64,000 nt of DNA from a phage. The stretch lies in the sequence record PX930852.1; one strand, written 5' to 3'. The notes below the pieces were generated by a model. That model did not search any database. It was not told the origin of the DNA and saw only the letters and a list, made by a program, of their open reading frames with translations. Shown here piece after piece: positions 3,850-64,000 of this stretch. Numbering within the stretch: the stretch's first letter is position 1; each line of letters starts with the position of its first letter. The position numbers and the translations under genes were made by a program.

Positions 3850-4272
3850 TTATTTCTCTCTCAGTTGGTTAAGTTTCTTTCTAGAACATTTTAAGTTTTC
3901 GGATGAAGAAAAGTCAAGTGTCTTTTCAGAACGTGGATAATAGTGCCTATCCCAAGAAGTTTCAACATCGTTAATCAGTGACGCTAGATTACACAGGTCT
4001 GTACCACTTTGCAACCTCTTTTTAAGAGAATCTAGTAAAGCAACTGTGTCTTTAGCTTTACGTCTCGCTGTAGCAACATCTTTCATATGCTCAAATACAG
4101 AGCATTTTAAGTCATCTTCATAGTTTTCAGACAACTCTATTTCATGTTGTATATCAACCATTCTCCTGTGATGGTGAGCATATTCCCGTTGAGCAGCAAT
4201 GTCAAGTTCTTCCAACTTCTGCAAAGCTCTAACAAAGTCAGCTATGTCTGGGTGAACAAACATTTTCTGCAT
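3850..4272 (-). CDS. hypothetical protein (140 aa)
   Basis: ORF immediately upstream of 3048..3848 on same strand. Confidence 0.5.
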   Translation of the reverse strand: MQKMFVHPDIADFVRALQKLEELDIAAQREYAHHHRRMVDIQHEIELSENYEDDLKCSVFEHMKDVATARRKAKDTVALLDSLKKRLQSGTDLCNLASLINDVETSWDRHYYPRSEKTLDFSSSENLKCSRKKLNQLREK

Positions 4273-4436
4273 GTAAGCCTCTTTTAAGTAACTATTAAGT
4301 TTTAATCTTTTATCTTAACGTATTCTATACGTTATACTTTAAAGCTTTTTAAAAGCTATTAAATAATCTTTTAAGAATTTTAAAGTATCTGTATAGTTAA
4401 ACTGTTAAGTAACCTTTTAAGTAAAAACCCACTTCG

Positions 4437-4470
4437 CAAAGATTAACACCTTGTCAAGTGCATTGTCAAC
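4437..4470 (+). promoter_or_regulatory. conserved tandem TTGTCAA promoter-like element (copy 1)
   Basis: ACCTTGTCAAGTGCATTGTCAACTTGCTTTTTATA upstream of DNA polymerase; near-identical copy at 47188. Confidence 0.45.
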
Positions 4471-4529
4471 TTGCTTTTTATAATTTTTTGCAGTAATGTA
4501 TGAGGTTAATGATTTTAGAGGGAGTAAAA

Positions 4530-7229
4530 ATGGAAAACGTAGATTTTAAAAACTTACATTTAGTTGGTGATACAGAAACTGATGGTTTACTCCTTGAGTT
4601 CACTAAAGTGCACGTAATGGCTTTCGCAGACTATAAATCTGACGATGAAGAGCCACCTGTATGGGTCTTTACGGATGAACCTATCCTCGGTCACAAGTAT
4701 ACCAAGTACATTAAGGGTGGCTTACGTGAAGGTGTTGAATTTGCGTTAAAGGCAAAACGTCTTTGCATCCATAACGGTCTCGGTTATGACTGGTGGGTTT
4801 TTAATCACATTGCACCTGATTTATGGAACTTTGATAATCCAAAGTGTAAGCCGTGGAGTAATTTCTTTCAGGATTCTCTTATCCAGTCTCGTGTTCAGTG
4901 GATGGATAGACCAACTCCAAAGGGTTATAAAGGTGCTCATGGCTTGGCTGCATGGGGTGCTCGTGTTGGTGTTCGTAAGCCAGAGATTGAGCATTGGGGT
5001 GTGTGGAATGCAGAAATCTTCACTCGTGTTGTAGAAGATATCCGTATTAACGCCAAAACTAAACGGGCACTTGATAACGAGTATCTCAAGCTTAAGAAGT
5101 GTGGCATAGACACTTATGAAACTTACATGCGAGCTAAAGAAACATCTTTCTGGATGAGTCAACAAGCTATCAATGGTTGGAAAGCTGATAAAGAGCTTAT
5201 GGAGTTCCATGTAAAGGAGCTTGACAAGTTGACTAATGAGCTTGCTTCAGAGGTTGAACCACATCTACCTCCAACTATTAAGACCAAAGGTAAAGTCACT
5301 GGAGAAGAGTTTGCAAAAGCTTGGAATGAGTATGTTGAAACATTTGGTCATGCAGATGGACTGAAAAGAATTACCAAGTACCCTAAGACAAAGTATCGTC
5401 AGCAGGTACGTAATGGTGAGATGCAGACATACGAAATCAAACCATTTGGTAAGCCAACTACAAAGATTTTTAACATTGAAAAGAGAAATTGCTATACACC
5501 AACCAACTCTGTAACTGGTGAAGAGTACAAGGAAGGCTTTGTAGCAATGAAGGATGCTCGTGCAATTTGCAATGAGTTGAACGCAAAGATTGGTAAGAAA
5601 TGCAAAGACTGGAAGCCAGTAAAAACAGTCAAAACTGTGAAGTACTATAACAGCCACGTTGTTAACCACTTTGAACTTGAGTCAAGTCGCTACACAGGTT
5701 TGATTGATGCACCATATACACCAATTGAGTTTGAAGTTTCTCGTATGACTCAGGTAGCAGTTGTTAAAGACTACTTGAAATCAGTTGGTTGGATTCCAGA
5801 TGACTGGAACTACAAGAAAGACTCAGATGGTCGCCCTGTCAAAGTTTGTCGTTTCAAAGACAATAAAAAGATGATTACAAAACATCCTAAGTGGCAGGAG
5901 ATGGTGGAACGATGTGGTTTAAGTTATGTTGAACATGAAGGTGTCCAGTACATTGAGCATAACTGGTCTGTGAAGAAGTACACAGATTTGCTTGAGCCTT
6001 GCTTAATCCGTACTTCACCAAAACTTACTGAATCATCTTATGATACGATTGAAGGTGAGCTTGGACAGAAGATTGCTAAGTACTATACTTTGATGCACCG
6101 ACGCAGAACTATTGAGAACTCAAAGGATGATGAAAAAGGTTGGTTGAACCAGATTCGTCCTGATGGTCGCCTTAGTGCTGGTGCAATGGTGTTCGGTACT
6201 TCAACTGGACGTATGACGCAATATGGTATTGTAAACGTACCGTCTGGTGCTGCTGTCTATGGGGAACCAATGAGGGCAGTGTGGATTTGTGAGGAAGGTA
6301 CTAACGTTGTCTCTGTAGATATGAACTCTGCCCAGCTAGTTCTTCTTTGTAACTTTATGGGTGATAAAGACTTCACCAAAGCGGTAACGCAAGGTAAAGA
6401 AGAAATTGAGTTCATTCGTCAAGAAGATGGACGCTATTACTGCAAACACTTTGATGAGTACCTCAACCCAGAGATTGATAAGTACCTTCGCTATGACTCT
6501 GAGAATGACCTGTACGTTGTTTATTCAGGGACTGATGCACATACACTGAACAGTATCTACTTTAGCTTGAATGATGAGCAGGATATCTTGACTTGTCGAG
6601 CTACTCAGGATGAGAATCTTCTTCATGAGATTAGCAAAGGTCGTAAGAAAGCTAAGAATGGTATCTATGCACTACTGTTCGGTGCAGGGGATGAGAAGTT
6701 TGCTAAGACGATTAAAGCTGCAACTACTCAGGAAGGCGCACTGACTAAACAGACTTATTTTATTCGTTTGCCTAAAATTAAGAAGCTGTTAGATGACTTG
6801 GAAGCTGACTACAAAGCAACTAAAAAGGCACTTGAAGAGGTGTTTGGTAAGACTGCTGCAATCTCTAAAGGGGGTTTTGTAAAGGTTGCTGGAGCTTGGT
6901 TGTGGTGTAAATCTCCACACAAACTGTTGAACTACCTTTTGATGGGTTCAGAGGCCCAGATTCAAAATGAGGCAATTAACCTTGCTTGTCGTCGCATGAT
7001 TGACGAAGGGTTGATGAAGCTAAATGGGCGTAAACCAGCTATAGGTGCTCGTTTGCTCTGCGCATATCACGATGAAACAAGTTGGGAATGCCCAGAAAGT
7101 ATGACGGCAGAAGTGAAAGCAGTTACTGACTGGTATTATGGACAAGCTTCTAAAAACTTAGGTCTTAAGAAAGAAACACTTGTTACAGGTACTGGTAAGG
7201 TTGGTAAAAGCTGGCTTGAAGTACACTAA
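4530..7229 (+). CDS. DNA polymerase, family A (Pol I/T7-like) with 3-5 exonuclease domain
   Basis: ORF 4500..7229; start chosen at ATG 4530 preceded by GGAG; DTETDG exonuclease motif, motif B-like K..IYALLFGAG, motif C YHDE. Confidence 0.85.
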   Translation: MENVDFKNLHLVGDTETDGLLLEFTKVHVMAFADYKSDDEEPPVWVFTDEPILGHKYTKYIKGGLREGVEFALKAKRLCIHNGLGYDWWVFNHIAPDLWNFDNPKCKPWSNFFQDSLIQSRVQWMDRPTPKGYKGAHGLAAWGARVGVRKPEIEHWGVWNAEIFTRVVEDIRINAKTKRALDNEYLKLKKCGIDTYETYMRAKETSFWMSQQAINGWKADKELMEFHVKELDKLTNELASEVEPHLPPTIKTKGKVTGEEFAKAWNEYVETFGHADGLKRITKYPKTKYRQQVRNGEMQTYEIKPFGKPTTKIFNIEKRNCYTPTNSVTGEEYKEGFVAMKDARAICNELNAKIGKKCKDWKPVKTVKTVKYYNSHVVNHFELESSRYTGLIDAPYTPIEFEVSRMTQVAVVKDYLKSVGWIPDDWNYKKDSDGRPVKVCRFKDNKKMITKHPKWQEMVERCGLSYVEHEGVQYIEHNWSVKKYTDLLEPCLIRTSPKLTESSYDTIEGELGQKIAKYYTLMHRRRTIENSKDDEKGWLNQIRPDGRLSAGAMVFGTSTGRMTQYGIVNVPSGAAVYGEPMRAVWICEEGTNVVSVDMNSAQLVLLCNFMGDKDFTKAVTQGKEEIEFIRQEDGRYYCKHFDEYLNPEIDKYLRYDSENDLYVVYSGTDAHTLNSIYFSLNDEQDILTCRATQDENLLHEISKGRKKAKNGIYALLFGAGDEKFAKTIKAATTQEGALTKQTYFIRLPKIKKLLDDLEADYKATKKALEEVFGKTAAISKGGFVKVAGAWLWCKSPHKLLNYLLMGSEAQIQNEAINLACRRMIDEGLMKLNGRKPAIGARLLCAYHDETSWECPESMTAEVKAVTDWYYGQASKNLGLKKETLVTGTGKVGKSWLEVH

Positions 7230-10379: not shown

Positions 10380-10700
10380 CGGGTACTCACCAGCATCACT
10401 TAAGAGTCTTTGAAAAGGGTTTTTAAGTGATGTAATGCGTGGCTCGGTGCAGTGAAGTATGGTGGGGTAGGGTATAATATGGTGCGGTAATGTATGGGTA
10501 GTTAGTCTCAGCTACATTAAAATGAGACTTACCTTTTTAAAAGGTCTTTGGAGAGGGTCTTTTAATAAGGTCTGGTGTAGTAGGGTTGGGCATGGTACGG
10601 TCCGGTGTGGTGTGGCACGGTATGGGTGGATGGTAGTATCCACGTTAAAAATCTACCAAGTTTCTAAAGAGTCTTCTGTTGAGGGTTCTTTACAAACAAC
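10380..10700 (+). repeat. GT-rich tandem repeat array 1 (about 2 units)
   Basis: units contain leader CCTTTTTAAAAGGTCTTTnGAGAGGGTCTTTTAATAAGG, about 65-nt (GGT)-rich tract, and hairpin GTAGTTAGTCTCAGCTACATTAAAATGAGACT plus T-run. Confidence 0.7.
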
Positions 10701-10715
10701 TTAACAATCAACTAA

Positions 10716-11321
<606 letters not shown>

Positions 11322-11323
11322 TT

Positions 11324-11764
11324 ATGAATACAAAAGCATTAGCAGCAAAGTTTAGTTACGGTGACACTGTATCACATTCTGAGATGGACACCTTCTTAGG
11401 TATTGTGAAGCCAACTTATCAAGGTGACATTGTTAAGTACGAAGATGAAATGAAGGCTTATGCACTTACACGTCTAAACCGACTTGAGAAGTTTATTGAA
11501 AAGCTTCTTAAAGAAGAGAAGATTTATCTGGTTGCTTCAATGGGTGTTGGTTATCGTGTGGTTGAACCTAAGCATCAAGCAACTATTGCAAAACGTAAAA
11601 TGTCTGGTAAGATTGGTCGTGCTTTAAAGCAAGCCACTCAAGCGATTGAGAATGTGAATACTATGGCACTTAGTCATCAAGAACGTTCACGACTGATTGA
11701 ACAGCAAAACCATTTAGCTGCTATGAAAGCTAACATTAACAAGCAACGTAGAAAACCTTTCTAA
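11324..11764 (+). CDS. hypothetical protein (146 aa)
   Basis: coupled to upstream ORF; followed by terminator hairpin at 11776. Confidence 0.55.
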   Translation: MNTKALAAKFSYGDTVSHSEMDTFLGIVKPTYQGDIVKYEDEMKAYALTRLNRLEKFIEKLLKEEKIYLVASMGVGYRVVEPKHQATIAKRKMSGKIGRALKQATQAIENVNTMALSHQERSRLIEQQNHLAAMKANINKQRRKPF

Positions 11765-11775
11765 GTTGACTAGGT

Positions 11776-11798
11776 AGCCTCTTCGGAGGCTCCTTTTT
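11776..11798 (+). terminator. rho-independent terminator
   Basis: AGCCTC-TTCG-GAGGCT hairpin followed by CCTTTTT. Confidence 0.6.
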
Positions 11799-12195
11799 AA
11801 AAGGTCTTTAAGAGGGTCTTTTAATGAGGTACGGCGCGGTTAGGTAAGGTCTGGTAGGGTAGGGTGAGGTTTGGTAAAGTGCGGGTAGTTAATCGGAGCT
11901 ACATAAAAATTCGATTACATCACTTAAGAGTCTTTAAATTATAGTCGATAGAGTATCTCATAGGGTTTTTAAGTGAGGTGTGGTAAAGCGCGGTTAGGTA
12001 TGGCGCGGTCAGGTCAGGTGAGGTTCGGTGCGGGTAGTTAGTCTCAGCTACATTAAAATGAGACTTACCTTTTTAAAAGGTCTTTAAGAGGGTCTTTTAA
12101 TAAGGTATTGTATGGTGTAGTTTGGTTAGGTATGGTTGGGTGTGGTAAGGTAGGGTATGGAAGGATGGCAGTAGCCTTATAAAAAATCTGCCAAA
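11799..12195 (+). repeat. GT-rich tandem repeat array 2 (about 3 units)
   Basis: same leader, GT-rich body and hairpin modules as array 1; exact 31-nt hairpin at 10498-10530 and 12033-12064. Confidence 0.7.
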
Positions 12196-12669: not shown

Positions 12670-12882
12670 ATGGCTCTTAAAAAGTTACATCCCAGAAGCG
12701 GTTATGGTAAGATAATTGACGATACAGACGGATTTACAGTCTTTACAGTCATCTGTCAAGATGATTCACAGATTGAAAAGGCTCTTGACGATTATCTTAA
12801 CGATGAACGTGAAAAGGTTAGGGCTACAAACATAGATTCATTGATTGACACTTCACGCAAACGGAAGAAGAAAGATGAATGA
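12670..12882 (+). CDS. hypothetical protein (70 aa)
   Basis: ORF adjacent to 12285..12668; lysine-rich C-terminus. Confidence 0.4.
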   Translation: MALKKLHPRSGYGKIIDDTDGFTVFTVICQDDSQIEKALDDYLNDEREKVRATNIDSLIDTSRKRKKKDE

Positions 12883-13174
12883 GATTTTTGACCCTTATGC
12901 TCCACAAGATGATTGGGAGGCTGATAGAGAGGCTGAAATGGAGAGTTATATTTGTCCAATGGATGTAGATGAAATGAGAGATTTCGTTGCACATCGTTTT
13001 AAGAGAGAGATTAAATCCAGAGGTCTTTCTCAAGAGCAAGTTGCTAAAATTTGTGGTATCTCTCAGGCTCGTGTATCCAACATAATCCATCTCACTGGTA
13101 ACGTCTCCCTTGAGTATATGTTGGAAGTATGTGAAAAATTTGGTGTTAATTTTAATTTAAGGTTGGCAGATTAA
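12875..13174 (+). CDS. HTH DNA-binding protein
   Basis: ORF 12845..13174 trimmed to ATG 12875 (ATGA-type overlap with upstream stop); helix-turn-helix-like LSQEQVAKICGISQARVSNI. Confidence 0.5.
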   Translation: MNEIFDPYAPQDDWEADREAEMESYICPMDVDEMRDFVAHRFKREIKSRGLSQEQVAKICGISQARVSNIIHLTGNVSLEYMLEVCEKFGVNFNLRLAD

Positions 13175-20071: not shown

Positions 20072-28093
<8,022 letters not shown>

Positions 28094-46686: not shown

Positions 46687-47058
46687 TTATTTTTTAAGAG
46701 TCGCTACAGCAGAGAACGTTGGTTTGTTATCTGTCTGTTGTTGACCACCATTATCAGGAGTCTTCTTAGTGTCTGCTGCAAGTGCTTTCATCTCACCTGC
46801 TGAGTGAGTAAAGATAGTTTTACCGACCTCAATCATACTCTTGATGGTTACGTCATCTGTGTTTAACCCGAACTCTGCAAGCTTAGCAGCATCCCTTGTA
46901 ACAATCGCTTCAAATAACTTTGCAGCAAACTCAGCAGAATTGTCAATGGTCAGTTGAGCTTTTACAAGTGAGCTTTTGTTGCGAGAGCCTTTTGGTCTTC
47001 CAGATGGGTTTCCAGATTGGCCTTTTTTAAACTGGCCTTTGTTTGTTCTGTTTTTCAT
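46687..47058 (-). CDS. hypothetical protein with GNPSGRPKG motif
   Basis: 123-aa ORF; basic N-terminus with Gly/Pro-rich motif. Confidence 0.45.
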   Translation of the reverse strand: MKNRTNKGQFKKGQSGNPSGRPKGSRNKSSLVKAQLTIDNSAEFAAKLFEAIVTRDAAKLAEFGLNTDDVTIKSMIEVGKTIFTHSAGEMKALAADTKKTPDNGGQQQTDNKPTFSAVATLKK

Positions 47059-47187
47059 TGGTATGCCTCTTATAAGACCTCTTAAAAGGCTTTTAAGATA
47101 AAAGATAGATATCCAGAAAGATATCTGTTTAAATAGCCTTTTTAGAGGAACCTTTTAAGTAATCTTCTAAGTATTTATAAGCCTACA

Positions 47188-47222
47188 CCTTGTCAAGTAC
47201 TTTGTCAACAACTTTTTTAACT
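47188..47222 (+). promoter_or_regulatory. conserved tandem TTGTCAA promoter-like element (copy 2)
   Basis: ACCTTGTCAAGTACTTTGTCAACAACTTTTTTAAC upstream of plus-strand operon starting 47308; shared upstream AACCTTTTAAGTAA box. Confidence 0.45.
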
Positions 47223-47307
47223 TGCAATAGTTCTTGACTTGTTGTATGGATTACTGTACCATCTTACTTAAAGCTGTAGGTCTGCCTTGTTCTACAAAGG
47301 AGACTTA

Positions 47308-47469
47308 ATGAGAAAATCAAATAAACCGAAGAAAGGTAAGAATACCAATCACTGTAAGGAATCAAAAAGGGTAGAGTCAATCTACTATTCATCCTCTGAA
47401 ATTGGTCTGTACCTGTTCTTTCAAAATTACAGAAGACAAGAGGATTATCTATGTGTAGTTCCCAATTAG
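47308..47469 (+). CDS. small basic protein (53 aa)
   Basis: ORF 47287..47469 trimmed to ATG 47308, which follows AAGGAGA RBS. Confidence 0.4.
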   Translation: MRKSNKPKKGKNTNHCKESKRVESIYYSSSEIGLYLFFQNYRRQEDYLCVVPN

Positions 47470-55448: not shown

Positions 55449-55459
55449 AATATCTTAAG

Positions 55460-55490
55460 AGCCTCCTTAATCGGGGGCTTTTTAATTTTT
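55460..55490 (+). terminator. rho-independent terminator closing plus-strand operon
   Basis: AGCCTCC-TTAATC-GGGGGCT followed by TTTTTAATTTTT. Confidence 0.65.
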
Positions 55491-57064
55491 ATAAAATTTT
55501 ATCGGTTGTCCCAACCTCTGGGTCACCATCATATGTGAATAAAATATCTATCCTTCTTAACAACCTTCTTAATCTTACTCTCTATATAGTTATATAGTAC
55601 TATATAGTATCTTAGTAACTATCTAGTGGTCTTAATAGCCCCTCTGTATAACCCTTCTAACAAGCCCTCTAACAAGCCTTCTTAACAACCTATACAATCA
55701 CCTTAACCATCCCTCTACACCTTCTTAGAAGCTCCTATACACCTCTTAATCTCTATGTCAGCTATGATAATCTCTATAGGTGTTCACTAGGTATTACTAA
55801 GCCTCTATATAGACTGTTTTAATAAACTTAACAGGAATATCTTTACAGGCCTTATCTCACAAGGTCTAACACGGTACTAACAAGGTATCTTATAAGCCTG
55901 TTATTACCTGTATTTTTAAAAGGCTGTATAGGTAATTATTCAGAATCTTAAAATTTTTATAAAATAGGACTGTCAAGTCATTTTTTAGGGTCTTTGAAGG
56001 AACTCAAAAATATCTGATTAGGATGTATATCTGCTTGGTAGCCCTTAACAGCTCCCTTACAAGTACTTTGCAAAATTTTAAAATATCCTTAACAATTTCT
56101 TAACAGTTCTAACACCTTCTTAACAACTCTTCAAAGGTCTTAACAGATTCTTAACAGAACTAACAAGGCTGTAACAGATTTCTAACAAGTACTGAATAGG
56201 CTTTACAGAATCTTAACAGATGACTAACAAGAGCTAACAAGTTAATTTTTAAGAGTTATTTTGTTAAGATAATTAACAAGTTTCTAACAAGTGTTTAATC
56301 TTTTTAACAAGCTATTAACATGGTCACTATCTCTTTTCTTATCGTTCCCTTTCCTTTCTTAGTGACTTCTTAAACATACCTCTTAAAAGCCCTCTATAGC
56401 TCCTTGTAAGCCCTTTTAAGCCTCTTCCTAGTATCTATCCCCCAACTGTACAGATAGCTCTTTATAGGGCTTTACAGGAGCTTATAAGGCTATGTCAAAG
56501 ACTCTTACAAGGCTTTTACGTGGTCTTAACAGAGATTTAACAAGGGGCTAACAAGTTGCTAACAAGTGCCTTAAAAGCATAACTATGTAGGGATTGTTAA
56601 GAAATTGTTAAGAAAATGTTAAGGGGGCTAGCATTTACGTAACTTTATAGCCTCTTTTACGTAACTTTGAAGTAACTTTATAGCCCCTATAACATACTTT
56701 TAAGACACTACCAATAGGATTCGATAGATTCCTATCTCATAGCCCTTTTTAATAGTTCACAAGAATACTAACGAGATGATAAAGCTTACACCCTTATAAG
56801 ATTCTTTTAAGGCTCTAGGAAGTTTTATAAAGGGATTTTTAGGGTGAGTTAATGCAATCCCTTAAGTTAGGTTGATAAGGCTGTTATAGAGCTTTATAGA
56901 GCGTTTTAGTGGTTGCCCTTCCCTTTCGGGTTATGGGCTTATATTTAAGTTGATTTGATAAGAAGATATAGAGTAGACTATAGAGTTATTGCTTTTAAGG
57001 TCTGGTAAGATTCTAACTTGTTAGGGGAGTCTGGGAAGATTCTGGGAAGGGATTGGATAGACGT
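55491..57064 (+). repeat. ORF-free region dense in TAACAAG/TAACAGA-type motifs
   Basis: no ORF of 60 aa or more in any frame; tens of CTTAACAA/CTAACAAG/TTAACAGA copies almost all on plus strand; secondary repeats TTACGTAACTTT and GTAACTTTATAGCC. Confidence 0.7.
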
Positions 57065-57094
57065 AAAAAAGCCCCTATGAGAAGGAGCTTTTCA
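57065..57094. terminator. terminator closing minus-strand early array
   Basis: AAAAAA-AGCCCCT-loop-AGGAGCT-TTTT; second hairpin GGGGCTAAATAGCCCC at 57102-57117. Confidence 0.5.
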
Positions 57095-57127
57095 GGTATC
57101 TGGGGCTAAATAGCCCCGTTGCGTCGA

Positions 57128-57376
57128 TTAGTTGTAACCTTGTTTGCTGTAGTATAGGGAGACGATTTTTTCTCCCCAGTAGTGGTAGTGATATTCCTCG
57201 TTTATGGCTTCTTTTACAGCGTCCTTCCAAAAGTCATCGGTAGGGTTATAATCTGGTAGCACCTGCTGAATCAGCATTTTGATAAGGTCAAAGGTGTTAT
57301 CTGTTCCACCGATATCGAATTTTGCATCAAGTTCGTGGCAGCCATAAGCATTAACAGTTACGCGGATAGTTGACAT
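57128..57376 (-). CDS. hypothetical early protein (82 aa)
   Basis: preceded by type-A cassette and GGAGA RBS; followed by terminator at 57065. Confidence 0.5.
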   Translation of the reverse strand: MSTIRVTVNAYGCHELDAKFDIGGTDNTFDLIKMLIQQVLPDYNPTDDFWKDAVKEAINEEYHYHYWGEKIVSLYYSKQGYN

Positions 57377-57441
57377 AATTTAGATTCTCCAGTTTAGGAC
57401 TTTACTTAGTGGGGGGAGGTCATCCCCCGTTAATTAGTAAT
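57377..57441 (-). promoter_or_regulatory. type-A early-gene cassette (hairpin plus RBS)
   Basis: minus sense GGGGGATGACCTCCCCCC stem-loop then ACTAAGTAAAGTCCTAAACTGGAGAATC and ATG. Confidence 0.55.
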
Positions 57442-57705
57442 TTACTGCATATTGGCGTATGTTGCAAGCCTTTTTTCGTTGTATTTTGTAAGAATCTCAC
57501 AAGATACAACATCATACTTTGTAACAGCGTTGCCTTTATCGAGGTCAAAAAAGCCAAACGCTTTACCATCTTTGAATCCGACAACTTCGTAAGATTCTTT
57601 GATGATTTCACCATTGAACAAATCACTTTCGATACGGTGAAATAATGCTACATCTTCTTTGTCGGTTGCAATTTGTAAAAGTGTGGTTAATTCTACGTTT
57701 TCCAT
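57442..57705 (-). CDS. hypothetical early protein (87 aa)
   Basis: preceded by type-A cassette and RBS. Confidence 0.5.
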   Translation of the reverse strand: MENVELTTLLQIATDKEDVALFHRIESDLFNGEIIKESYEVVGFKDGKAFGFFDLDKGNAVTKYDVVSCEILTKYNEKRLATYANMQ

Positions 57706-57771
57706 CTTGATAACTCCAGTTTAGGACTTTATTTAGTGGGGAAGGTCATTCCCTCCCCGTTGATTGACAAT
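57706..57771 (-). promoter_or_regulatory. type-A early-gene cassette
   Basis: conserved TTGTCAATCAACGGGGAGGGAATGACCTTCCCCACTAAATAAAGTCCTAAACTGGAG. Confidence 0.55.
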
Positions 57772-58302
57772 TTACAGACTTTTAAGTGTCTCGTCAATAT
57801 CTTTTTCAATGTCTTTTAAAGTTTTTTCTAAGTTCTTGATATTGAAGGATAAACCTTCACCGAGAGTCTTAGAGTAACCACTAGGACGTAAATTATACAG
57901 TTTAATTTCTTCCACTTTAAAGAGACTAACTAACTCACCGTTTACATCATAAGCCATTGAAACAGTATTTGCAGGTGCATTGTAAAACTTGTTTAGTGAC
58001 TTGATAGAACGTTCATAAGCCATTTTATAACCGTTTAAAAGGTTTTTAACGTGGTTGTGAACGTTTTTACACTCATCTAAGTAAATCTCTAAGAATAACG
58101 GTAATAATTCCGCTACAGCTTGCATAAAGTGAGAGACTACAACGGTTGCAACATTACGACGATGTACATAATAAGCCCCGTTTTCTGACTTAGTGATGGT
58201 TGCAAAGTGTACCCCATTACAACGAAATTCATATGTATCTTTTACAGGCTTAGACATTACAGCATTTGAACGAATGAAGTTGATAGCTTTAAACTTGTTC
58301 AT
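57772..58302 (-). CDS. hypothetical early protein (176 aa)
   Basis: preceded by type-A cassette and RBS. Confidence 0.5.
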   Translation of the reverse strand: MNKFKAINFIRSNAVMSKPVKDTYEFRCNGVHFATITKSENGAYYVHRRNVATVVVSHFMQAVAELLPLFLEIYLDECKNVHNHVKNLLNGYKMAYERSIKSLNKFYNAPANTVSMAYDVNGELVSLFKVEEIKLYNLRPSGYSKTLGEGLSFNIKNLEKTLKDIEKDIDETLKSL

Positions 58303-58375
58303 TTTGACTCTCCTAGTTTAAGGATTTTACTTAGTGGGGAAGGTCATTCCCTCCCCGTTGATTAGTAATTTACTT
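58303..58375 (-). promoter_or_regulatory. type-A early-gene cassette
   Basis: same conserved hairpin and RBS module. Confidence 0.55.
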
Positions 58376-58462
58376 GTTTTGATAGTTGATTGCAAGTAAT
58401 TTTTTGAGCTTATCTATAAAGAATCTTTTAAGTTAATCCCTTTTAGATAAACCCCCTCGAAC

Positions 58463-58492
58463 AAAGTTACCAATGTCAAGGGGTATTGTCAA
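58463..58492. promoter_or_regulatory. tandem TGTCAA element (copy 3), orientation ambiguous
   Basis: ATGTCAAGGGGTATTGTCAACACTTTTTTA in plus orientation inside a minus-strand gene array. Confidence 0.3.
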
Positions 58493-58524
58493 CACTTTTT
58501 TAAAAGTTTTTTGTAAGTCATTGA

Positions 58525-58866
58525 TTAACTGATGAATATTTTTTCAGGTTTTACATAGCTGATACGCTGACTTTTTAGCAGGTCATCCCAGATTAACGCG
58601 GCGATATGGGTATAACCGGATTCACGTAAAAGTTTCATTGTTTTACTTCTCGTTTCAAAACGGCTTGCATAGTACTCACTATTCAGCGTCGTTTTATTCC
58701 CTTCGTTGTCTACATGGATAATCTGCATCACTTGAAAGGGGCTTGTGTCCTCGCCTTTATTCCACTGTTCAAAGTATTTTAGGCACTGCATAGGTGACAT
58801 CTTATCACTGACCTGAGTTGACCAAGATGCGCCAGCTTTATCGGTAATTACGGTTACATAAGCCAT
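58525..58866 (-). CDS. hypothetical early protein (113 aa)
   Basis: preceded by type-A cassette and RBS. Confidence 0.5.
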   Translation of the reverse strand: MAYVTVITDKAGASWSTQVSDKMSPMQCLKYFEQWNKGEDTSPFQVMQIIHVDNEGNKTTLNSEYYASRFETRSKTMKLLRESGYTHIAALIWDDLLKSQRISYVKPEKIFIS

Positions 58867-58956
58867 TTTTAGATTCTCCAGTTTAGGACTTTATTTAGTG
58901 GGGAAGGTCATTCCCTCCCCGTTGATTGACAATTTACAGATTTTTATCAGGCTTGT
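58867..58956 (-). promoter_or_regulatory. type-A early-gene cassette
   Basis: same module; upstream TTGAAA-17-ATAAAA candidate promoter. Confidence 0.55.
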
Positions 58957-59190
58957 CTAGTCTTTTTCAATGATAATTTCATACTGACCATCTACGCTGT
59001 CAAAATAGACACCTTCTTCATCTTCTGTCTTAAAGTAACATTGTATATCATCACTGGCGGGATAGTCTTGCCTTGCTATCTGGCACACTTGAACAGCATT
59101 TTCTTTACTCCCTGTAAACTCCTCAAGCCCTTTAAAATCGCATGAATGACCGTTACAAATAGAAAGGATGAGGTAAATGGTTGTAAGCAT
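58957..59190 (-). CDS. hypothetical protein with N-terminal signal-like segment (77 aa)
   Basis: MLTTIYLILSICNG hydrophobic N-terminus; AAGAGG RBS. Confidence 0.45.
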   Translation of the reverse strand: MLTTIYLILSICNGHSCDFKGLEEFTGSKENAVQVCQIARQDYPASDDIQCYFKTEDEEGVYFDSVDGQYEIIIEKD

Positions 59191-59203
59191 GATTTAAGCC
59201 TCT

Positions 59204-59224
59204 TAAAAGCCCCTTACAGGGGCT
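59204..59224 (-). terminator. intergenic terminator/attenuator
   Basis: AGCCCC-TGTAA-GGGGCT followed by TTTTAAG in minus sense. Confidence 0.5.
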
Positions 59225-59256
59225 GAATAGTGTTTATAAGGTGATTGCATAGGTTT

Positions 59257-59799
59257 TTAGAAAAAACCCTTTAAATCCTCTTCTGCGATGTTTCCTGTCA
59301 GTGTATCCATGATGTCACAAAAAACCTGAATACTGTCCGACTGTTGAACACTTTTAGCAAGTAGTTCTAATGTCTCATCAAGATAGTTTAAATTTGGGTT
59401 ATCCAATGAAGGAAGACAAAAAGGTGAATACATAGCGTTAAACTCTGTTGTATAGACCTTTTTAATCCAATTTATATCAAAATACTCTGTAAAACTTGCT
59501 ACACTCGACATATTATCACAAGAATAATCATCGTTTAGTTCATCCTCTGGAATATCAAGTTCTAGGATAACAATATTTTGTGTCTTCATCTGGAAAGCTG
59601 CGGTGATAGTGGCATTGCCTAAAGCTTGCTGGATACCTTCAGAGATTATTTCTTCCTCATCGTCGCCATAGATTTTATTTTCTGGATACACGTAAAAATT
59701 GCCGTCCATATCCGAACAATTCCATGCGCCTGATGGTTTATCACCGTTATTAATCAGGTTGAGGAAATTTTCTTGAGTAGTTCCGTGATAGCATTTCAT
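59257..59799 (-). CDS. hypothetical early protein (180 aa)
   Basis: preceded by type-B cassette; followed by terminator hairpin 59204. Confidence 0.5.
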   Translation of the reverse strand: MKCYHGTTQENFLNLINNGDKPSGAWNCSDMDGNFYVYPENKIYGDDEEEIISEGIQQALGNATITAAFQMKTQNIVILELDIPEDELNDDYSCDNMSSVASFTEYFDINWIKKVYTTEFNAMYSPFCLPSLDNPNLNYLDETLELLAKSVQQSDSIQVFCDIMDTLTGNIAEEDLKGFF

Positions 59800-59886
59800 T
59801 TTTGAATCTCCTAGTTTAAGGATTTAGTGGTAAAGCTCTTTATCTGGGGCTTACTTTATCGAACTATAAGCCCCTTGTAAAGTACT
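59800..59886 (-). promoter_or_regulatory. type-B early-gene cassette (promoter-like)
   Basis: minus sense TTTACA-17 nt-TATCTT inside GGGGCTTA..TAAGCCCC inverted repeat, then RBS. Confidence 0.55.
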
Positions 59887-60135
59887 TTATTTAACTTTCT
59901 TTGAGAAAATTAGTTTAACTGCAACCGTAGGAACCTCGTCAGCGATTGTAACCAGCATCACTTTTTGAGTGACCAACTTATAACCGTTCTTTGCAGCGTA
60001 TGCGGTAAAACGGTTGACATTGTAACTATAAGTTTTTGGTGTGTTATCTGGCATGTGGTAAATGAAAGGTTTACCCAAATTTTCTTCTTGTGTCAATAAT
60101 CTACAGGTATCGGGAATGTTAAAGTAGTTCATCAT
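59887..60135 (-). CDS. hypothetical early protein (82 aa)
   Basis: preceded by type-B cassette. Confidence 0.45.
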   Translation of the reverse strand: MMNYFNIPDTCRLLTQEENLGKPFIYHMPDNTPKTYSYNVNRFTAYAAKNGYKLVTQKVMLVTIADEVPTVAVKLIFSKKVK

Positions 60136-60221
60136 TTTTAGAATCTCCAGTTTAGGATTTAGTGGTAAAGCTCTTTATCTGAGGCTTAAGTTATCAACTT
60201 TTAAGCCCCTTGTAAAGTACT
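60136..60221 (-). promoter_or_regulatory. type-B early-gene cassette
   Basis: same module (GGGGCTTAAAAGTTGATAACTTAAGCCTC). Confidence 0.55.
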
Positions 60222-60425
60222 TTATTTGTTATTTTTGACAACTTTTAAAACTGCAAGATAGCCTAAGCAATAAGAATCACCGAAGAGAGTCCTACCCATG
60301 AAAGAATCCTCTTTGATATCCTTTGCAGTGACAGTTTTTTCTACGCCGTGGGAAAGGACTATATCACCAACTTTGATATCTTTGATGTGTGTAGTTTCAA
60401 TGGTTAAACCATTAATAATAGCCAT
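60222..60425 (-). CDS. hypothetical early protein (67 aa)
   Basis: preceded by type-A cassette. Confidence 0.45.
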   Translation of the reverse strand: MAIINGLTIETTHIKDIKVGDIVLSHGVEKTVTAKDIKEDSFMGRTLFGDSYCLGYLAVLKVVKNNK

Positions 60426-60527
60426 TTTTAGATTCTCCAGTTTAGGACTTTATTTAGTGGGGAAGGTCATTCCCTCCCCGTTGATGTGTAATTTAATCTA
60501 TCTAAAAACCAGTGTCAACAAAATTTT
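60426..60527 (-). promoter_or_regulatory. type-A early-gene cassette with upstream TTGACA-17-TAAATT
   Basis: minus sense GTTGACAC..TAAATT followed by conserved hairpin GGGGAGGGAATGACCTTCCCC. Confidence 0.55.
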
Positions 60528-60932
60528 TTAGAGTTCTGCATAAATTGCATCACAGACATCACGAAAATCGTGATTTGTCAAATTACGTTGTAACCAAGTG
60601 GCAAAGAAATCAGCGATTGCAAAATTAGCGTCATACTCGACGGATAGCCATACTTTAACAGCAAATCGGAACATCTTTAAATCAAGCTCTTTATTCATTA
60701 CCTTTGATTTGCCTAACATGTCGGACATTTCATATTGCGCACCGTCTAGCGTGATACCTGCTGCAACGTCAGCCAATGAACTTTTTACGTTTTCAACGTC
60801 TAAAATAACGCTTTGAATCTTTCCGATAATGTTGTGCAATGTCTCATCAGGCGCTGATGATGTCATAATGTTGATTCGATTAACGGTCAAACGTGCTTTT
60901 AACATTGATAATTCACGGTTATTAATAGCCAT
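60528..60932 (-). CDS. hypothetical early protein
   Basis: ORF 60528..60947 uses a TTG inside the conserved cassette; true start taken as ATG 60932 after GGAGAA. Confidence 0.45.
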   Translation of the reverse strand: MAINNRELSMLKARLTVNRINIMTSSAPDETLHNIIGKIQSVILDVENVKSSLADVAAGITLDGAQYEMSDMLGKSKVMNKELDLKMFRFAVKVWLSVEYDANFAIADFFATWLQRNLTNHDFRDVCDAIYAEL

Positions 60933-61018
60933 TTTTAAGTTCTCCAATTTAGGATTGAGTGGTAAAGCTCTTTATCTGGGGCTTAAGATATCAACTTCCA
61001 AGCCCCATGTAAAGTACT
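60933..61018 (-). promoter_or_regulatory. type-B early-gene cassette
   Basis: same module. Confidence 0.5.
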
Positions 61019-61291
61019 TTACATTAAATGCAGTTTTTTGCCTTTTACTATAATGTAACTCGATGCGCTATTGCTTTGCACATCCTGATAAATTCTGCGC
61101 AAACGTCCTTCGTAGTGTACTTTCCAACTGGTTGGAATCTTTTTACCGTATCCCGTAGCAGTTTTTTGGAGTCCTGCTACTTGCCAATCTAAGATATGTT
61201 GCTCAGCTTGTAAGTCTTCAAAGTGCATGACACCATCTACATAGTGACGTAGTGTGACATTTAAAGTGCGACCGTTGTTAGTAGTATACAT
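61019..61291 (-). CDS. hypothetical early protein (90 aa)
   Basis: preceded by type-A cassette. Confidence 0.45.
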   Translation of the reverse strand: MYTTNNGRTLNVTLRHYVDGVMHFEDLQAEQHILDWQVAGLQKTATGYGKKIPTSWKVHYEGRLRRIYQDVQSNSASSYIIVKGKKLHLM

Positions 61292-61381
61292 TTTAGAATC
61301 TCCTAGTTTAAGGACTTTATTCAGTGGGGAAGGTCATTCCCTCCCCGTTGATGTGTAATTTAATCTATCTAAAAACCAGTG
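61292..61381 (-). promoter_or_regulatory. type-A early-gene cassette with upstream TTGACA-17-TAAATT
   Basis: near-identical to 60426-60527. Confidence 0.55.
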
Positions 61382-61714
61382 TCAACAGTTTTGTTTTCGT
61401 TTGCTCAATTCTTGAACAATTACAGCGTAGTAGTCTTTTAAGTCACTGATATTTAAAGCATTTATTAGTGAATTATAATCATCGATTAACTGAAAATCAT
61501 CTTTGAAGATGTCACTTATCTGATAGGTTTTCGCTTTGTATCTGAAGCTCATCTCTAGCCGCTTTATTTGCTCATCACTGAGACGCCCTAGAAAGCTCTC
61601 TACAAGGTTATTGCTGACCTGCTGTGTGATTGCCTTATTTGCTAGATTATAGGCTTTATATGCCTTATATAGCGCGAAAATGGCAATGATTGCAGTGATA
61701 CCAGTCATTAACAT
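61382..61714 (-). CDS. putative membrane protein (110 aa)
   Basis: N-terminal TM helix MLMTGITAIIAIFALY; coupled to upstream gene. Confidence 0.45.
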   Translation of the reverse strand: MLMTGITAIIAIFALYKAYKAYNLANKAITQQVSNNLVESFLGRLSDEQIKRLEMSFRYKAKTYQISDIFKDDFQLIDDYNSLINALNISDLKDYYAVIVQELSKRKQNC

Positions 61715-62004
61715 GGTGTTTCCTCTTTACGTGATACTTTGCCATTTACAGTTATCTCATAGGATTCTAATAAATCGCTTTTAGACTTTACAGGACTTTT
61801 AAAAGTATCATCATAAATATTAACTTGCAATACAGGTTTTTTATACTCCCTGCAACTGTTCCATAAGCAAATCACTACACGACGGCCTTTTATTTTGCCG
61901 TGTAACCATTCCATAACATCATGATTATTCCTTGATGTTTCAATGAAATCAATTTTGTTGAGTAATTTGCTTAGATTTTCACGCACTTGATTTGATAATT
62001 TCAT
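61708..62004 (-). CDS. hypothetical early protein (98 aa)
   Basis: preceded by type-B-like cassette. Confidence 0.45.
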   Translation of the reverse strand: MKLSNQVRENLSKLLNKIDFIETSRNNHDVMEWLHGKIKGRRVVICLWNSCREYKKPVLQVNIYDDTFKSPVKSKSDLLESYEITVNGKVSRKEETPC

Positions 62005-62096
62005 TTTAGAATCTCCTAGTTTAAGGGCTTTATTTGATAAATCTCTTTATCTGGGGCTATCCTACCAGCTTGATAACCCCGTGTAAAGAAATCTAT
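62005..62096 (-). promoter_or_regulatory. type-B-like early-gene cassette (variant)
   Basis: shares RBS-proximal block and GGGGCT hairpin arm. Confidence 0.45.
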
Positions 62097-62609
62097 TTAG
62101 TTCTTAAAGATATTCATCACTGAATCTTTTAGTGATTCCAAACGTTCTAATACTTCAGATTCTGCGTCTGAATTGTTCACCTCTTCTTTTAGTCTATCCT
62201 CTAAATCATCGCCGTCACTATAGCACCAATCAAAAGCGTAGCCAATATAAAAACTGTCTAAAATTGTTTGACCATTTGCATCGACAACTTTCGCGGCAAG
62301 GTTGTATTCTGAAGCCTCTAAATCTCTTTCTAATTCTTTCTGTAAGCTTGTGTAAGCCTCTTTTGATGGATTTTCCCGGCCTTGTTTTGCATAGTCACTT
62401 GAAAGCTGTTTAAGGCTGTAATGCAAAGGGATTGCATATTTAAAATCATTACGCTGACAGTTGGGGTTTTTAATAGTCACGCCGCCCTGATGGGTGTCTG
62501 TAAACTCCCAATTATCAAGATTATGGCTTGCTTCAAAGCAATTGACAGCTTCATAAATAATAGTGAATTTTTCTTTTACAACTTCAAAGGTAGCGTCTAC
62601 AGTTTTCAT
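62097..62609 (-). CDS. hypothetical early protein (170 aa)
   Basis: preceded by type-B cassette. Confidence 0.5.
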   Translation of the reverse strand: MKTVDATFEVVKEKFTIIYEAVNCFEASHNLDNWEFTDTHQGGVTIKNPNCQRNDFKYAIPLHYSLKQLSSDYAKQGRENPSKEAYTSLQKELERDLEASEYNLAAKVVDANGQTILDSFYIGYAFDWCYSDGDDLEDRLKEEVNNSDAESEVLERLESLKDSVMNIFKN

Positions 62610-62697
62610 TTTTGAATCTCCAGTTTAGGACTTAGTAGTAAAGCTCTTTATCTGGGGCTTAAGATATCAACTTTTAAGCCCCTTGTAAAGTACTTTA
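62610..62697 (-). promoter_or_regulatory. type-B early-gene cassette
   Basis: same module. Confidence 0.55.
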
Positions 62698-62955
62698 TCA
62701 GATTAAATTGCCAGTTAATGATAAGTGCATTTTGTAACCTTGTTTAGTGAAAACATTCACTTTACCGAGTGTTTTTACACCTTTAAAAAGGTTATTTGAA
62801 CTGCGTTTTAGGTTTAACTGTTTATCAACCTTCACGCCCCACCTTACAGCAGATTGTTTTCCGTTGTCAACCACTTTCCCGCATAACTTTTTAGCCATGA
62901 TACGAGCGTCATCACGAGTCTTTGCGGTAATTACAACGTTTTTGATAATAGCCAT
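62698..62955 (-). CDS. hypothetical early protein
   Basis: ORF 62698..62970 uses TTG in cassette; start taken as ATG 62955. Confidence 0.45.
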   Translation of the reverse strand: MAIIKNVVITAKTRDDARIMAKKLCGKVVDNGKQSAVRWGVKVDKQLNLKRSSNNLFKGVKTLGKVNVFTKQGYKMHLSLTGNLI

Positions 62956-63041
62956 TTTTAAGTTCTCCAATTTAGGATTTAGTGGTAAAGCTCTTTATCT
63001 GGGGCTTACTTTATCGAACTATAAGCCCCTTGTAAAGTACT
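62956..63041 (-). promoter_or_regulatory. type-B early-gene cassette
   Basis: same module. Confidence 0.55.
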
Positions 63042-63425
63042 TTATTTGTTAATTTTGAAGATAGTTACATAACCATCGCTCCCGATGATTTGCGATACCC
63101 CAGCTTTTTCTACTTTATAGCCCATATTTTCAAGATGATAAACAGCATCATCATAACCATATGCGCCACCCTGATAACGTCGCTTATCACATCTTACTAA
63201 TACTTTTCCGCGTCCTGCTAGTGCATTCAGTACGGCTTTTTCACTTGATAGTGTACCGTCTAACATGGTTGCCGTGTAATGGTTGATTCTATTCCCGTTT
63301 ACATCATACTTAAAATTGAATGCGTGAACAACAATAATGTTGCCTTTAAAATTCTCATCAAGTGACTTCTCCAGTACTTTGCGAAAGTTGTCTTTGTTGA
63401 TGAATTTCGGTGCACGATATGCCAT
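63042..63425 (-). CDS. hypothetical early protein (127 aa)
   Basis: preceded by type-B cassette. Confidence 0.5.
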   Translation of the reverse strand: MAYRAPKFINKDNFRKVLEKSLDENFKGNIIVVHAFNFKYDVNGNRINHYTATMLDGTLSSEKAVLNALAGRGKVLVRCDKRRYQGGAYGYDDAVYHLENMGYKVEKAGVSQIIGSDGYVTIFKINK

Positions 63426-63515
63426 TTTTGAATCTCCTAGTTTAAGGGTTAATTTGGTAAAGCTCTTTATCTGGGGCTTACTTTATCGAACTATAAGCCC
63501 CATGTAAAGTACTTT
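63426..63515 (-). promoter_or_regulatory. type-B early-gene cassette
   Basis: same module. Confidence 0.55.
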
Positions 63516-63737
63516 TTATTTATCGTAATAGTAAATCGCTGTTTGCCTTGTAAAATTCTTAGTATTTCTTGTAAGGTAGCAATTAGAGTTTATAGCTGTT
63601 TCTACATAGTTGCAATAGTCAGCTTCTGATATTCTAGACCATACGCCACAAATTTGCATGTAAAAACGTTTTACCTTTGTGTTAACGTTAGTTGTAACCA
63701 TCAATTCACGACTGTAAAGCATTATTTCGCGCTCCAT
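63516..63737 (-). CDS. hypothetical early protein (73 aa)
   Basis: overlaps upstream gene. Confidence 0.4.
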   Translation of the reverse strand: MEREIMLYSRELMVTTNVNTKVKRFYMQICGVWSRISEADYCNYVETAINSNCYLTRNTKNFTRQTAIYYYDK

Positions 63738-63910
63738 TTCTCAAAGAGTTCAGCAGGGAAACGTTCGCTATACCCTTTTAAGGAAAAAGTATTATCTTTG
63801 TGGATAGCTTCCACCTGATAAACCTTATAAGAGCGTATAGTTAGCATTTTGTAAGAGTATTCGTGCTTAATGTTAACCTCATCGCCAACTTTAATTTTTC
63901 TTGATGCCAT
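63722..63910 (-). CDS. hypothetical early protein (62 aa)
   Basis: preceded by type-A cassette at 63911. Confidence 0.4.
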   Translation of the reverse strand: MASRKIKVGDEVNIKHEYSYKMLTIRSYKVYQVEAIHKDNTFSLKGYSERFPAELFEKWSAK

Positions 63911-63970
63911 TTTTGAATCTCCAGTTTAGGATTTTATTTAGTGGGAAAGGTCATTCCCTCCCCGTTGATG
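63911..63970 (-). promoter_or_regulatory. type-A early-gene cassette
   Basis: GGGAAAGGTCATTCCCTCCCC hairpin and RBS module. Confidence 0.5.
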
Positions 63971-64000
63971 TAAATATTAGATAACCACGTTCAAAGAGTC

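Follow-up and report, generated by a model that had tools for sequence, protein, structure and literature searches.

The window analysed here, a stretch of 64,000 nucleotides of sequence record PX930852.1, belongs to Felixounavirus, i.e. to a Felix O1-like phage. The region bearing the element described below is 98% identical to Felixounavirus genomes and is contained in 259 phage records; the plus strand of Felix O1 corresponds to the minus strand of the window. GU169904 (labelled Staphylococcus phage SA1, 147 kb) and two records labelled Campylobacter also hold this Felix O1-like sequence in the 97-99% identity range, which suggests that these records are mixed or mislabelled.

The genome has only two divergent intergenic regions. 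One of them (4273-4529) separates the minus-strand ORF97 homologue, with its ATG at 4272, from the plus-strand DNA polymerase gene, with its ATG at 4530; the other (47059-47307) separates a DUF5681 gene, which is the ORF41 homologue (minus strand, start at 47058), from the plus-strand ORF40 homologue, whose ATG is at 47308. Each region holds one copy of the element. Over about 105 nt (4382-4486 versus 47117-47223) the two can be aligned with a score of 46, compared to 20.7 +/- 2.8 in shuffles (z of about 9).

A repeated TTGTCAA element

The 25-nt element ACACCTTGTCAAGTnCnTTGTCAAC is found twice, at 4446-4470 (copy A, ACACCTTGTCAAGTGCATTGTCAAC) and at 47185-47209 (copy B, ACACCTTGTCAAGTACTTTGTCAAC), and has the consensus ACACCTTGTCAAGT[G/A]C[A/T]TTGTCAAC. 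The tandem TTGTCAA motif with an upstream box, which the initial annotation had reported at two sites, is real and is only slightly shifted by these coordinates. A window-wide search with the pattern TTGTCAAGTNCNTTGTCAAC (18 specified bases) returned exact matches at these two positions only, while 0.13 matches with up to three mismatches are expected from shuffles; the agreement between the two copies is far above chance. The same search in the complete Felix O1 genome gave the same two exact copies and no further ones. One match with three mismatches (35855) lies inside a coding gene and was treated as chance. The box AACCTTTTAAGTAA has only two exact occurrences, 4411-4424 and 47149-47162, which precede their respective copies by 23-24 nt, and each copy is followed by a T-run (CTTTTTA at 4474-4480 in copy A, CTTTTTTA at 47212-47219 in copy B). 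As annotated, both copies precede plus-strand genes, with the polymerase starting at 4530 and not at 4500. However, minus-strand genes begin at the opposite border of each region, so that the arrangement is divergent.

Candidate sigma-70 promoters on the minus strand

TTGTCAA is the reverse complement of TTGACAA. Read on the minus strand, copy A gives AAAAA-GCAAG-TTGACA, followed by 18 nt that include a second TTGACA and end in GGTGT, and then TAATCT. Copy B correspondingly gives AAAAAA-GTTG-TTGACA, 17 nt including a second TTGACA, and TAGGCT (Table 1). The CTTTTTTA box of the initial annotation becomes the A-tract upstream of the minus-strand promoter candidate. The annotation had further stated that no TATAAT-like hexamer stands at the spacing of a standard sigma-70 promoter; this holds for the plus strand only, whereas on the minus strand the standard geometry is present. 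A looser copy, absent from that annotation, lies on the same strand as A and B upstream of the homologue of Felix O1 ORF22 (57772-58302, minus strand) and is referred to as copy C.

In copies A, B and C the minus-strand -35 hexamer matches TTGACA at six of six positions, and the paired -10 hexamers (N18 TAATCT, N17 TAGGCT and N17 TAACTT, respectively) each match at three of six. All three copies are intergenic, and each is aimed at the next minus-strand gene (starts at 4272, 47058 and 58302). We consider it likely, at a probability of roughly 0.7, that the element represents the core of a promoter which the host sigma-70 RNA polymerase reads leftward, on the minus strand; by itself, it would most likely be an ordinary host-type promoter.

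Table 1 Features of the three element copies and of the adjoining plus-strand promoter candidates. Promoter and leader assignments are predictions.
Feature	Position	Strand	Basis or remark
Copy A, A-tract AAAAA (about -42 to -46)	4475-4479	-	sequence; resembles UP-element proximal subsite
Copy A, -35 TTGACA (second TTGTCAA unit of the initial annotation)	4464-4469	-	top minus-strand PWM match, 11.9 bits
Copy A, second TTGACA in spacer (about -24 to -19; first annotated unit)	4452-4457	-	invariant in 23 distinct sequences
Copy A, GGTGT (TGn extended -10) and -10 TAATCT	4440-4450	-	spacer 18 nt; predicted start near 4433
Copy A, tandem leader boxes TTACTTAAAAGGTT and ACTTAACAGTTT, including AACCTTTTAAGTAA	4399-4424	-	box family enriched in region
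Copy B, A-tract AAAAAA (-40 to -45)	47213-47218	-	sequence
Copy B, -35 TTGACA	47203-47208	-	PWM 13.0 bits; P41 of the Felix O1 paper
Copy B, second TTGACA within spacer	47191-47196	-	invariant in 15 distinct sequences
Copy B, -10 TAGGCT	47180-47185	-	spacer 17 nt; predicted start near 47173
Copy B, tandem leader boxes ATACTTAGAAGA and TTACTTAAAAGGTT (about +12 to +25)	47149-47174	-	sequence
Copy C, AAAAAA-GTG-TTGACA-ATACCCC-TTGACA-TTGG-TAACTT	58464-58501	-	unit period 13 bp; PWM 13.1 bits
DNA polymerase promoter candidate TTGCTT-N17-TAATGT	4471-4499	+	weak; abuts element
47308-operon promoter candidate TTGACT-N17-TACCAT	47234-47262	+	12.6 bits; invariant in three genera

Both element copies have previously been called as minus-strand promoters by computation. 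P41 of Felix O1, a computational call of TTGACA(N15)TATAGG at 21515-21541, has the distal unit of copy B as its -35 (Whichard et al. 2010, PMC3185647), and the AYO145A record (NC_028825) carries copy A as a computationally annotated promoter TTGACA-N18-TAATCT on the same strand. The -35 hexamers and the strand of these two features are those of our copies B and A. For P41, the paper chose TATAGG at N15 as -10, while we choose TAGGCT at N17. Nothing similar was found in the 96-97 region by the authors of the Felix O1 paper (PMC3185647); there and in the AYO145A record the two sites are unlinked, and the doubled hexamer and the third copy are unmentioned. What is new here is the third copy at 58464-58501 and the invariant second TTGACA in the spacer of all three.

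Conservation in related phages

To follow the element in relatives across the Ounavirinae, nine polymerase-side and nine ORF41-side regions were compared from Felixounavirus, Suspvirus, Mooglevirus, Pectobacterium phage Arno18, Kolesnikvirus and three IMG/VR lineages, which are related by descent and do not represent independent trials. Scanning used an approximate sigma-70 PWM based on consensus frequencies, whose scores are rough. In all 18 regions, the minus strand carries a -35-type unit with TAnnnT 17 or 18 nt downstream. The unit reads TTGACA in 15 of the 18 and TTTACA, TTGACT or TTGACG in three. The promoter based on this unit is the top minus-strand match in 16 regions; on the polymerase side of lineage L043 and on the ORF41 side of Kolesnikvirus phi63_307, another TTGACA promoter outscores it. 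Ten different -10 hexamers were seen (TAATCT, TAGTCT, TAGGCT, TAGCCT, TACATT, TAATGT, TACCCT, TACACT, TACTCT and TAAGCT). The TAATCT of copy A is TAGTCT in Mooglevirus, so that TAnnnT is kept, and copy B has TAGCCT in both Suspvirus and Mooglevirus. A polymerase-side region was sought and not found in the two most distant lineages (L079 and L080).

A fine footprint was drawn from 23 distinct polymerase-side and 15 distinct ORF41-side sequences. Both units are invariant throughout, while the intervening 4 nt in copy A and 5 nt in copy B vary freely; in the minus-strand -10, the T, the A and the final T are kept and the middle positions vary. The period of the units is 12, 12 and 13 bp in the window and 10 and 11 bp in IMGVR_UViG_3300045988_028620, a lineage in which the units are doubled as well and the polymerase is 56% identical. 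In every doubled case, unit period and gap to the -10 combine to a spacer of 17-18 nt for the distal unit. Since period and gap compensate, the constrained quantity is the distance between -35 and -10, as would be required of a sigma-70 promoter. A single unit is present in Arno18 and Kolesnikvirus. In the ORF40/41-equivalent region of Kolesnikvirus phi63_307, three 10-bp direct repeats CGGTCAAAA(T/A) lie between divergent promoters (L016, 33165-33200); a different repeat thus occupies the same position.

Three promoter candidates with a doubled TTGACA

The window contains three perfect pairs of TTGACA with a distance of 9-14 nt, compared to 0.07 in shuffled sequence and 0.29 expected from the observed TTGACA density, and the whole Felix O1 genome also contains exactly three. 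All of them are intergenic, lie on the same strand and have an A-tract as well as TAnnnT at 17-18 nt from the distal unit. Because the pairs share location, strand, A-tract and TAnnnT, we regard them as a three-member promoter subclass with a second TTGACA in the spacer. The subclass is also marked by tandem ACTTAAAAGRTT-type boxes in the predicted transcribed leader. In copy A, the AACCTTTTAAGTAA box would be located at about +10 to +23 of the minus-strand transcript, and the leader of copy C carries boxes similar to those of A and B (TCTAAAAGGGAT and ACTTAAAAGATT). Mooglevirus keeps both TTGACA units of copy C. For the proximal TTGACA within the spacer, the PWM scan of the 18 regions revealed no consistent -10. 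The second TTGACA in the spacer of all three copies may be an operator, and together with the leader boxes it may form a regulatory layer.

Other promoters and repeats of the phage

Across the window, 43 PWM matches of at least 11.5 bits were obtained, in comparison to 19 in shuffles. About fifteen of the 43 are intergenic, with intergenic sequence making up 14% of the total, and nearly all of these are aligned with the local direction of transcription, which makes the intergenic matches informative. The early promoters (57-64 kb) show the layout of the element, namely an A-tract, TTGACA or TTTACA, N17, and TAAATT or TAAAGT.

The minus strand of the early region (57300-64000) consists of repeated promoter modules that match the repeat families D1-D3, D11 and D12. 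One module family has TTTACA-N17-TAAAGT with the -10 between GGGGCTT and AAGCCCC arms, and the other has TTGACA-N17-TAAATT followed by a GGGGAGGGAATGACCTTCCCC hairpin. Between convergent operons, a non-coding stretch of 1.7 kb (55449-57127) is rich in CTTAACA(R), CTAACAAG and CTTAAAAG boxes, spaced by about 10-11 bp, with 17 matches within 1 kb, compared to 0.7 per 500 nt elsewhere. Boxes of this family also fill both divergent regions, and the array could be an origin or a regulatory array. In the plus-strand replication operon, three or four copies of a 70-125-nt repeat (D4, D10, D15) are found at 10401-12194, one of which begins with GGTGCGGTAATGTATGGGTAGTTAGTCTCAGCTACATTAAAATGAGACTTACC.

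Plus-strand promoter candidates

In the initial annotation, the element had been interpreted as a possibly phage-specific or middle-type promoter of the two plus-strand operons. A promoter element does appear to be present, and the neighbouring genes were indeed scored middle by RT-PCR (PMC3185647), but the strand and the type find no support, with sigma-70 geometry on the minus strand. As a plus-strand operon promoter the element is not borne out: it points at the minus-strand operons, and separate conserved plus-strand candidates adjoin it. Most likely, it is a promoter that is not phage-specific and does not serve the plus-strand operons.

For the polymerase gene, the hexamer TTGCTT (4471-4476) and the TA..GT positions (4494-4499) of the candidate are invariant, with a variable sequence in the 17-nt spacer; the Mooglevirus version, TTGCTT-N17-TAGGGT, scores 7.4 bits. 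The candidate of the 47308 operon has its counterpart in Arno18 as TTGACA-N17-TACCAT. A consensus TATAAT (4479-4484), 10 nt after copy A, is lost in Suspvirus and Mooglevirus (TGAAAC or TGAAGA), and the matching hexamer of copy B is not kept either.

Alternative explanations and known systems

One alternative is that the tandem TGTCAA repeats are the site of an activator, either phage-encoded or a host protein of the OmpR/PhoB winged-helix type, which serves the polymerase and 47308 operons. We consider this quite improbable, even if such an activator could conceivably act through the repeats, above all on the weak polymerase promoter candidate that abuts them. Relative to this candidate, the repeats would lie around -40 and -52. 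In favour of an activator, direct repeats of TGTCA spaced by about 11 bp are reminiscent of a Pho box, copy A has the consensus TATAAT downstream of its second unit, both units are invariant and the flanking genes were scored middle. However, neither this TATAAT nor its equivalent in copy B is conserved, and the distance from the repeats to the strong plus-strand promoter candidate of copy B exceeds that of copy A by 25 bp, which would place the repeats on a different helical face. In addition, the period ranges from 10 to 13 bp, and from 10 to 11 within one genome, Arno18 and Kolesnikvirus manage with a single unit, and copy C has no divergent plus-strand gene.

Short direct repeats over the -35 region are also known from the Pho box of PhoB and from lambda CII sites (TTGC-N6-TTGC). 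Those repeats replace or flank a poor -35, keep a fixed period of 10-11 bp and act on the strand on which they are read. In contrast, the repeat of the element is the consensus -35 itself, its period varies between 10 and 13 bp and a -10 on the same strand is not conserved. The units do contain TGTCA cores, with periods of 12, 12 and 13 bp in the window and 10 and 11 bp in the other lineage versus 11 bp in a Pho box. A reading as Pho box plus TATAAT was rejected, as the -10 about 10 nt downstream is conserved in neither copy A nor copy B.

Another explanation accepts the minus-strand promoter and takes the spacer TTGACA as an operator or decoy that throttles or times the three leftward promoters. 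This we regard as doubtful. The unit would be occupied by a protein of phage or host origin, or by sigma region 4 bound in the wrong register. The spacer unit is invariant although its position floats, with 4-7 nt separating it from the -10 and 10-13 nt from the -35; the genome has no more than three promoters of this kind, all with tandem leader boxes, and ORFs 41 and 97 were scored middle despite a consensus -35. On the other hand, ORF22, downstream of copy C, was scored early, and the search for a binding protein gave no candidate. The HTH_3 protein encoded at 12845-13174, the only Cro/C1-type HTH seen, was rejected as unit binder because it does not occur together with the repeats: Arno18 lacks it, and so does the pol-to-td operon of the tandem-bearing lineage L187. 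We know of no citable precedent for an operator or decoy within the spacer.

Finally, the similarity might be a functionless by-product of recent duplication or gene conversion, or the repeats might be iterons of a replication origin. Paralogy of the two regions extends over about 105 nt, and both are AT-rich and filled with repeats. It is highly improbable, however, that this explains the element, as the units are invariant across three genera while adjacent bases vary and the same architecture recurs with different spacing in the lineage with the 56%-identical polymerase. Each site has just two units, and an iteron-like array lies elsewhere, at 56.0-57.0 kb.

The closest parallel to the minus-strand sigma-70 reading is offered by phage T4, whose early promoters are of the E. 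coli sigma-70 type with a UP-like A-tract and an extended -10. The element shares with these and with E. coli sigma-70 promoters an A-tract near -42, a TTGACA-type -35, a spacer of 17-18 nt and TAnnnT, together with TGn in copy A; as in T4 early transcription, the host polymerase would be used by a phage without RNA polymerase of its own. It differs from T4 early promoters by its weak -10, by the second perfect TTGACA in the spacer and by the repeated boxes in the predicted leader. In T4 middle promoters, the MotA box (TGCTTtA) near -30 replaces the -35 at 11-13 nt from the -10. The RT-PCR timing class and a TGCTT-containing stretch of copy A (4472-4478) are reminiscent of this MotA/AsiA system, but the TGCTTTT in question lies 15 nt from TAATGT rather than 11-13, and copy B has no such box. 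On its minus strand, copy B contains a T4 late-type TATAAATA (47173-47180) that copy A lacks and that Suspvirus and Mooglevirus do not keep. By-eye comparison with the consensus sequences of IHF, CRP, ArcA, sigma-54 and LexA gave none that fits both copies. A promoter for a phage RNA polymerase was discarded because there are only 2-3 copies per genome and Felix O1 encodes no RNA polymerase (PMC3185647).

Proposed function and timing

In the proposed mechanism, the A-tract (about -40 to -46) would probably aid binding of the polymerase alpha subunit, followed by the consensus -35 TTGACA, a spacer of 17-18 nt and a weak but valid -10 (TAATCT or TAGGCT). From copy A, transcription would proceed into the ORF97 homologue, dNMP kinase and primase/helicase, and from copy B into the DUF5681 gene, the tRNA cluster and morphogenesis genes; copy C, with a predicted start near 58457, would serve an early-region gene. 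Our best guess is that timing or strength is set by the second TTGACA and the leader boxes, either through binding of a regulator or by placing the polymerase in the wrong register.

Several observations count against a plain promoter. At about 160 and 115 nt, the leaders predicted for copies A and B are long, the -10 hexamers are poor matches, and the invariance of the spacer TTGACA is left unaccounted for. A consensus -35 also predicts early firing, but ORFs 38, 41, 42 and 96-99 were scored middle with a peak at 25 min, and ORF22 early (5 min), all by crude end-point RT-PCR (PMC3185647). The temporal control of transcription in Felix O1 was described as not understood, with no polymerase-modifying genes seen and no MotA or AsiA reported (PMC3185647). 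The literature searched yielded no usable start mapping or RNA-seq of Felix O1-like phages, Bas63 among them, and no in vitro transcription with any of the group. It is a speculative and rather unlikely idea, derived from sequence comparison, that the three doubled-TTGACA promoters with their leader boxes act as a temporal switch of Felix O1-like phages, with a phage or host factor or mis-registered sigma region 4 on the spacer TTGACA. If true, this switch would act as a gate on the operons of tRNAs and morphogenesis as well as on those of replication and nucleotide metabolism, and would time transcription independently of any known polymerase-modifying protein.

Felix O1-like phages are widely used in typing and biocontrol of Salmonella and E. 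coli. The likely promoters of two large leftward operons are located here, and a three-member promoter subclass with an extra conserved box is identified; together they offer defined targets for the mapping of starts, for mutagenesis and for the engineering of phages.

Features of the predicted leaders

Rfam searches of both divergent regions gave no credible match. The predicted leader of the ORF97 transcript contains the palindrome AACGTAT-TCT-ATACGTT (4317-4333), which in Mooglevirus reads ATGTAT-GTT-ATACAT; both arms are changed and the pairing is kept (2/7 pairs, among four sequences compared). In the ORF41 leader region (47080-47126), a perfect 19-bp palindrome, TCTTAAAAGGCTTTTAAGA, is followed by the inverted repeat AGATATC-N6-GATATCT. 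As both are invariant in three genera, covariation is uninformative for them. The first gene downstream of copy B (46687-47058, minus strand) encodes the DUF5681 protein, which has a conserved basic motif at its N-terminus, KGQSGNPSGRPKGSRNKSS, that is AT-hook-like; this protein is a possible DNA binder beside the AT-rich boxes.
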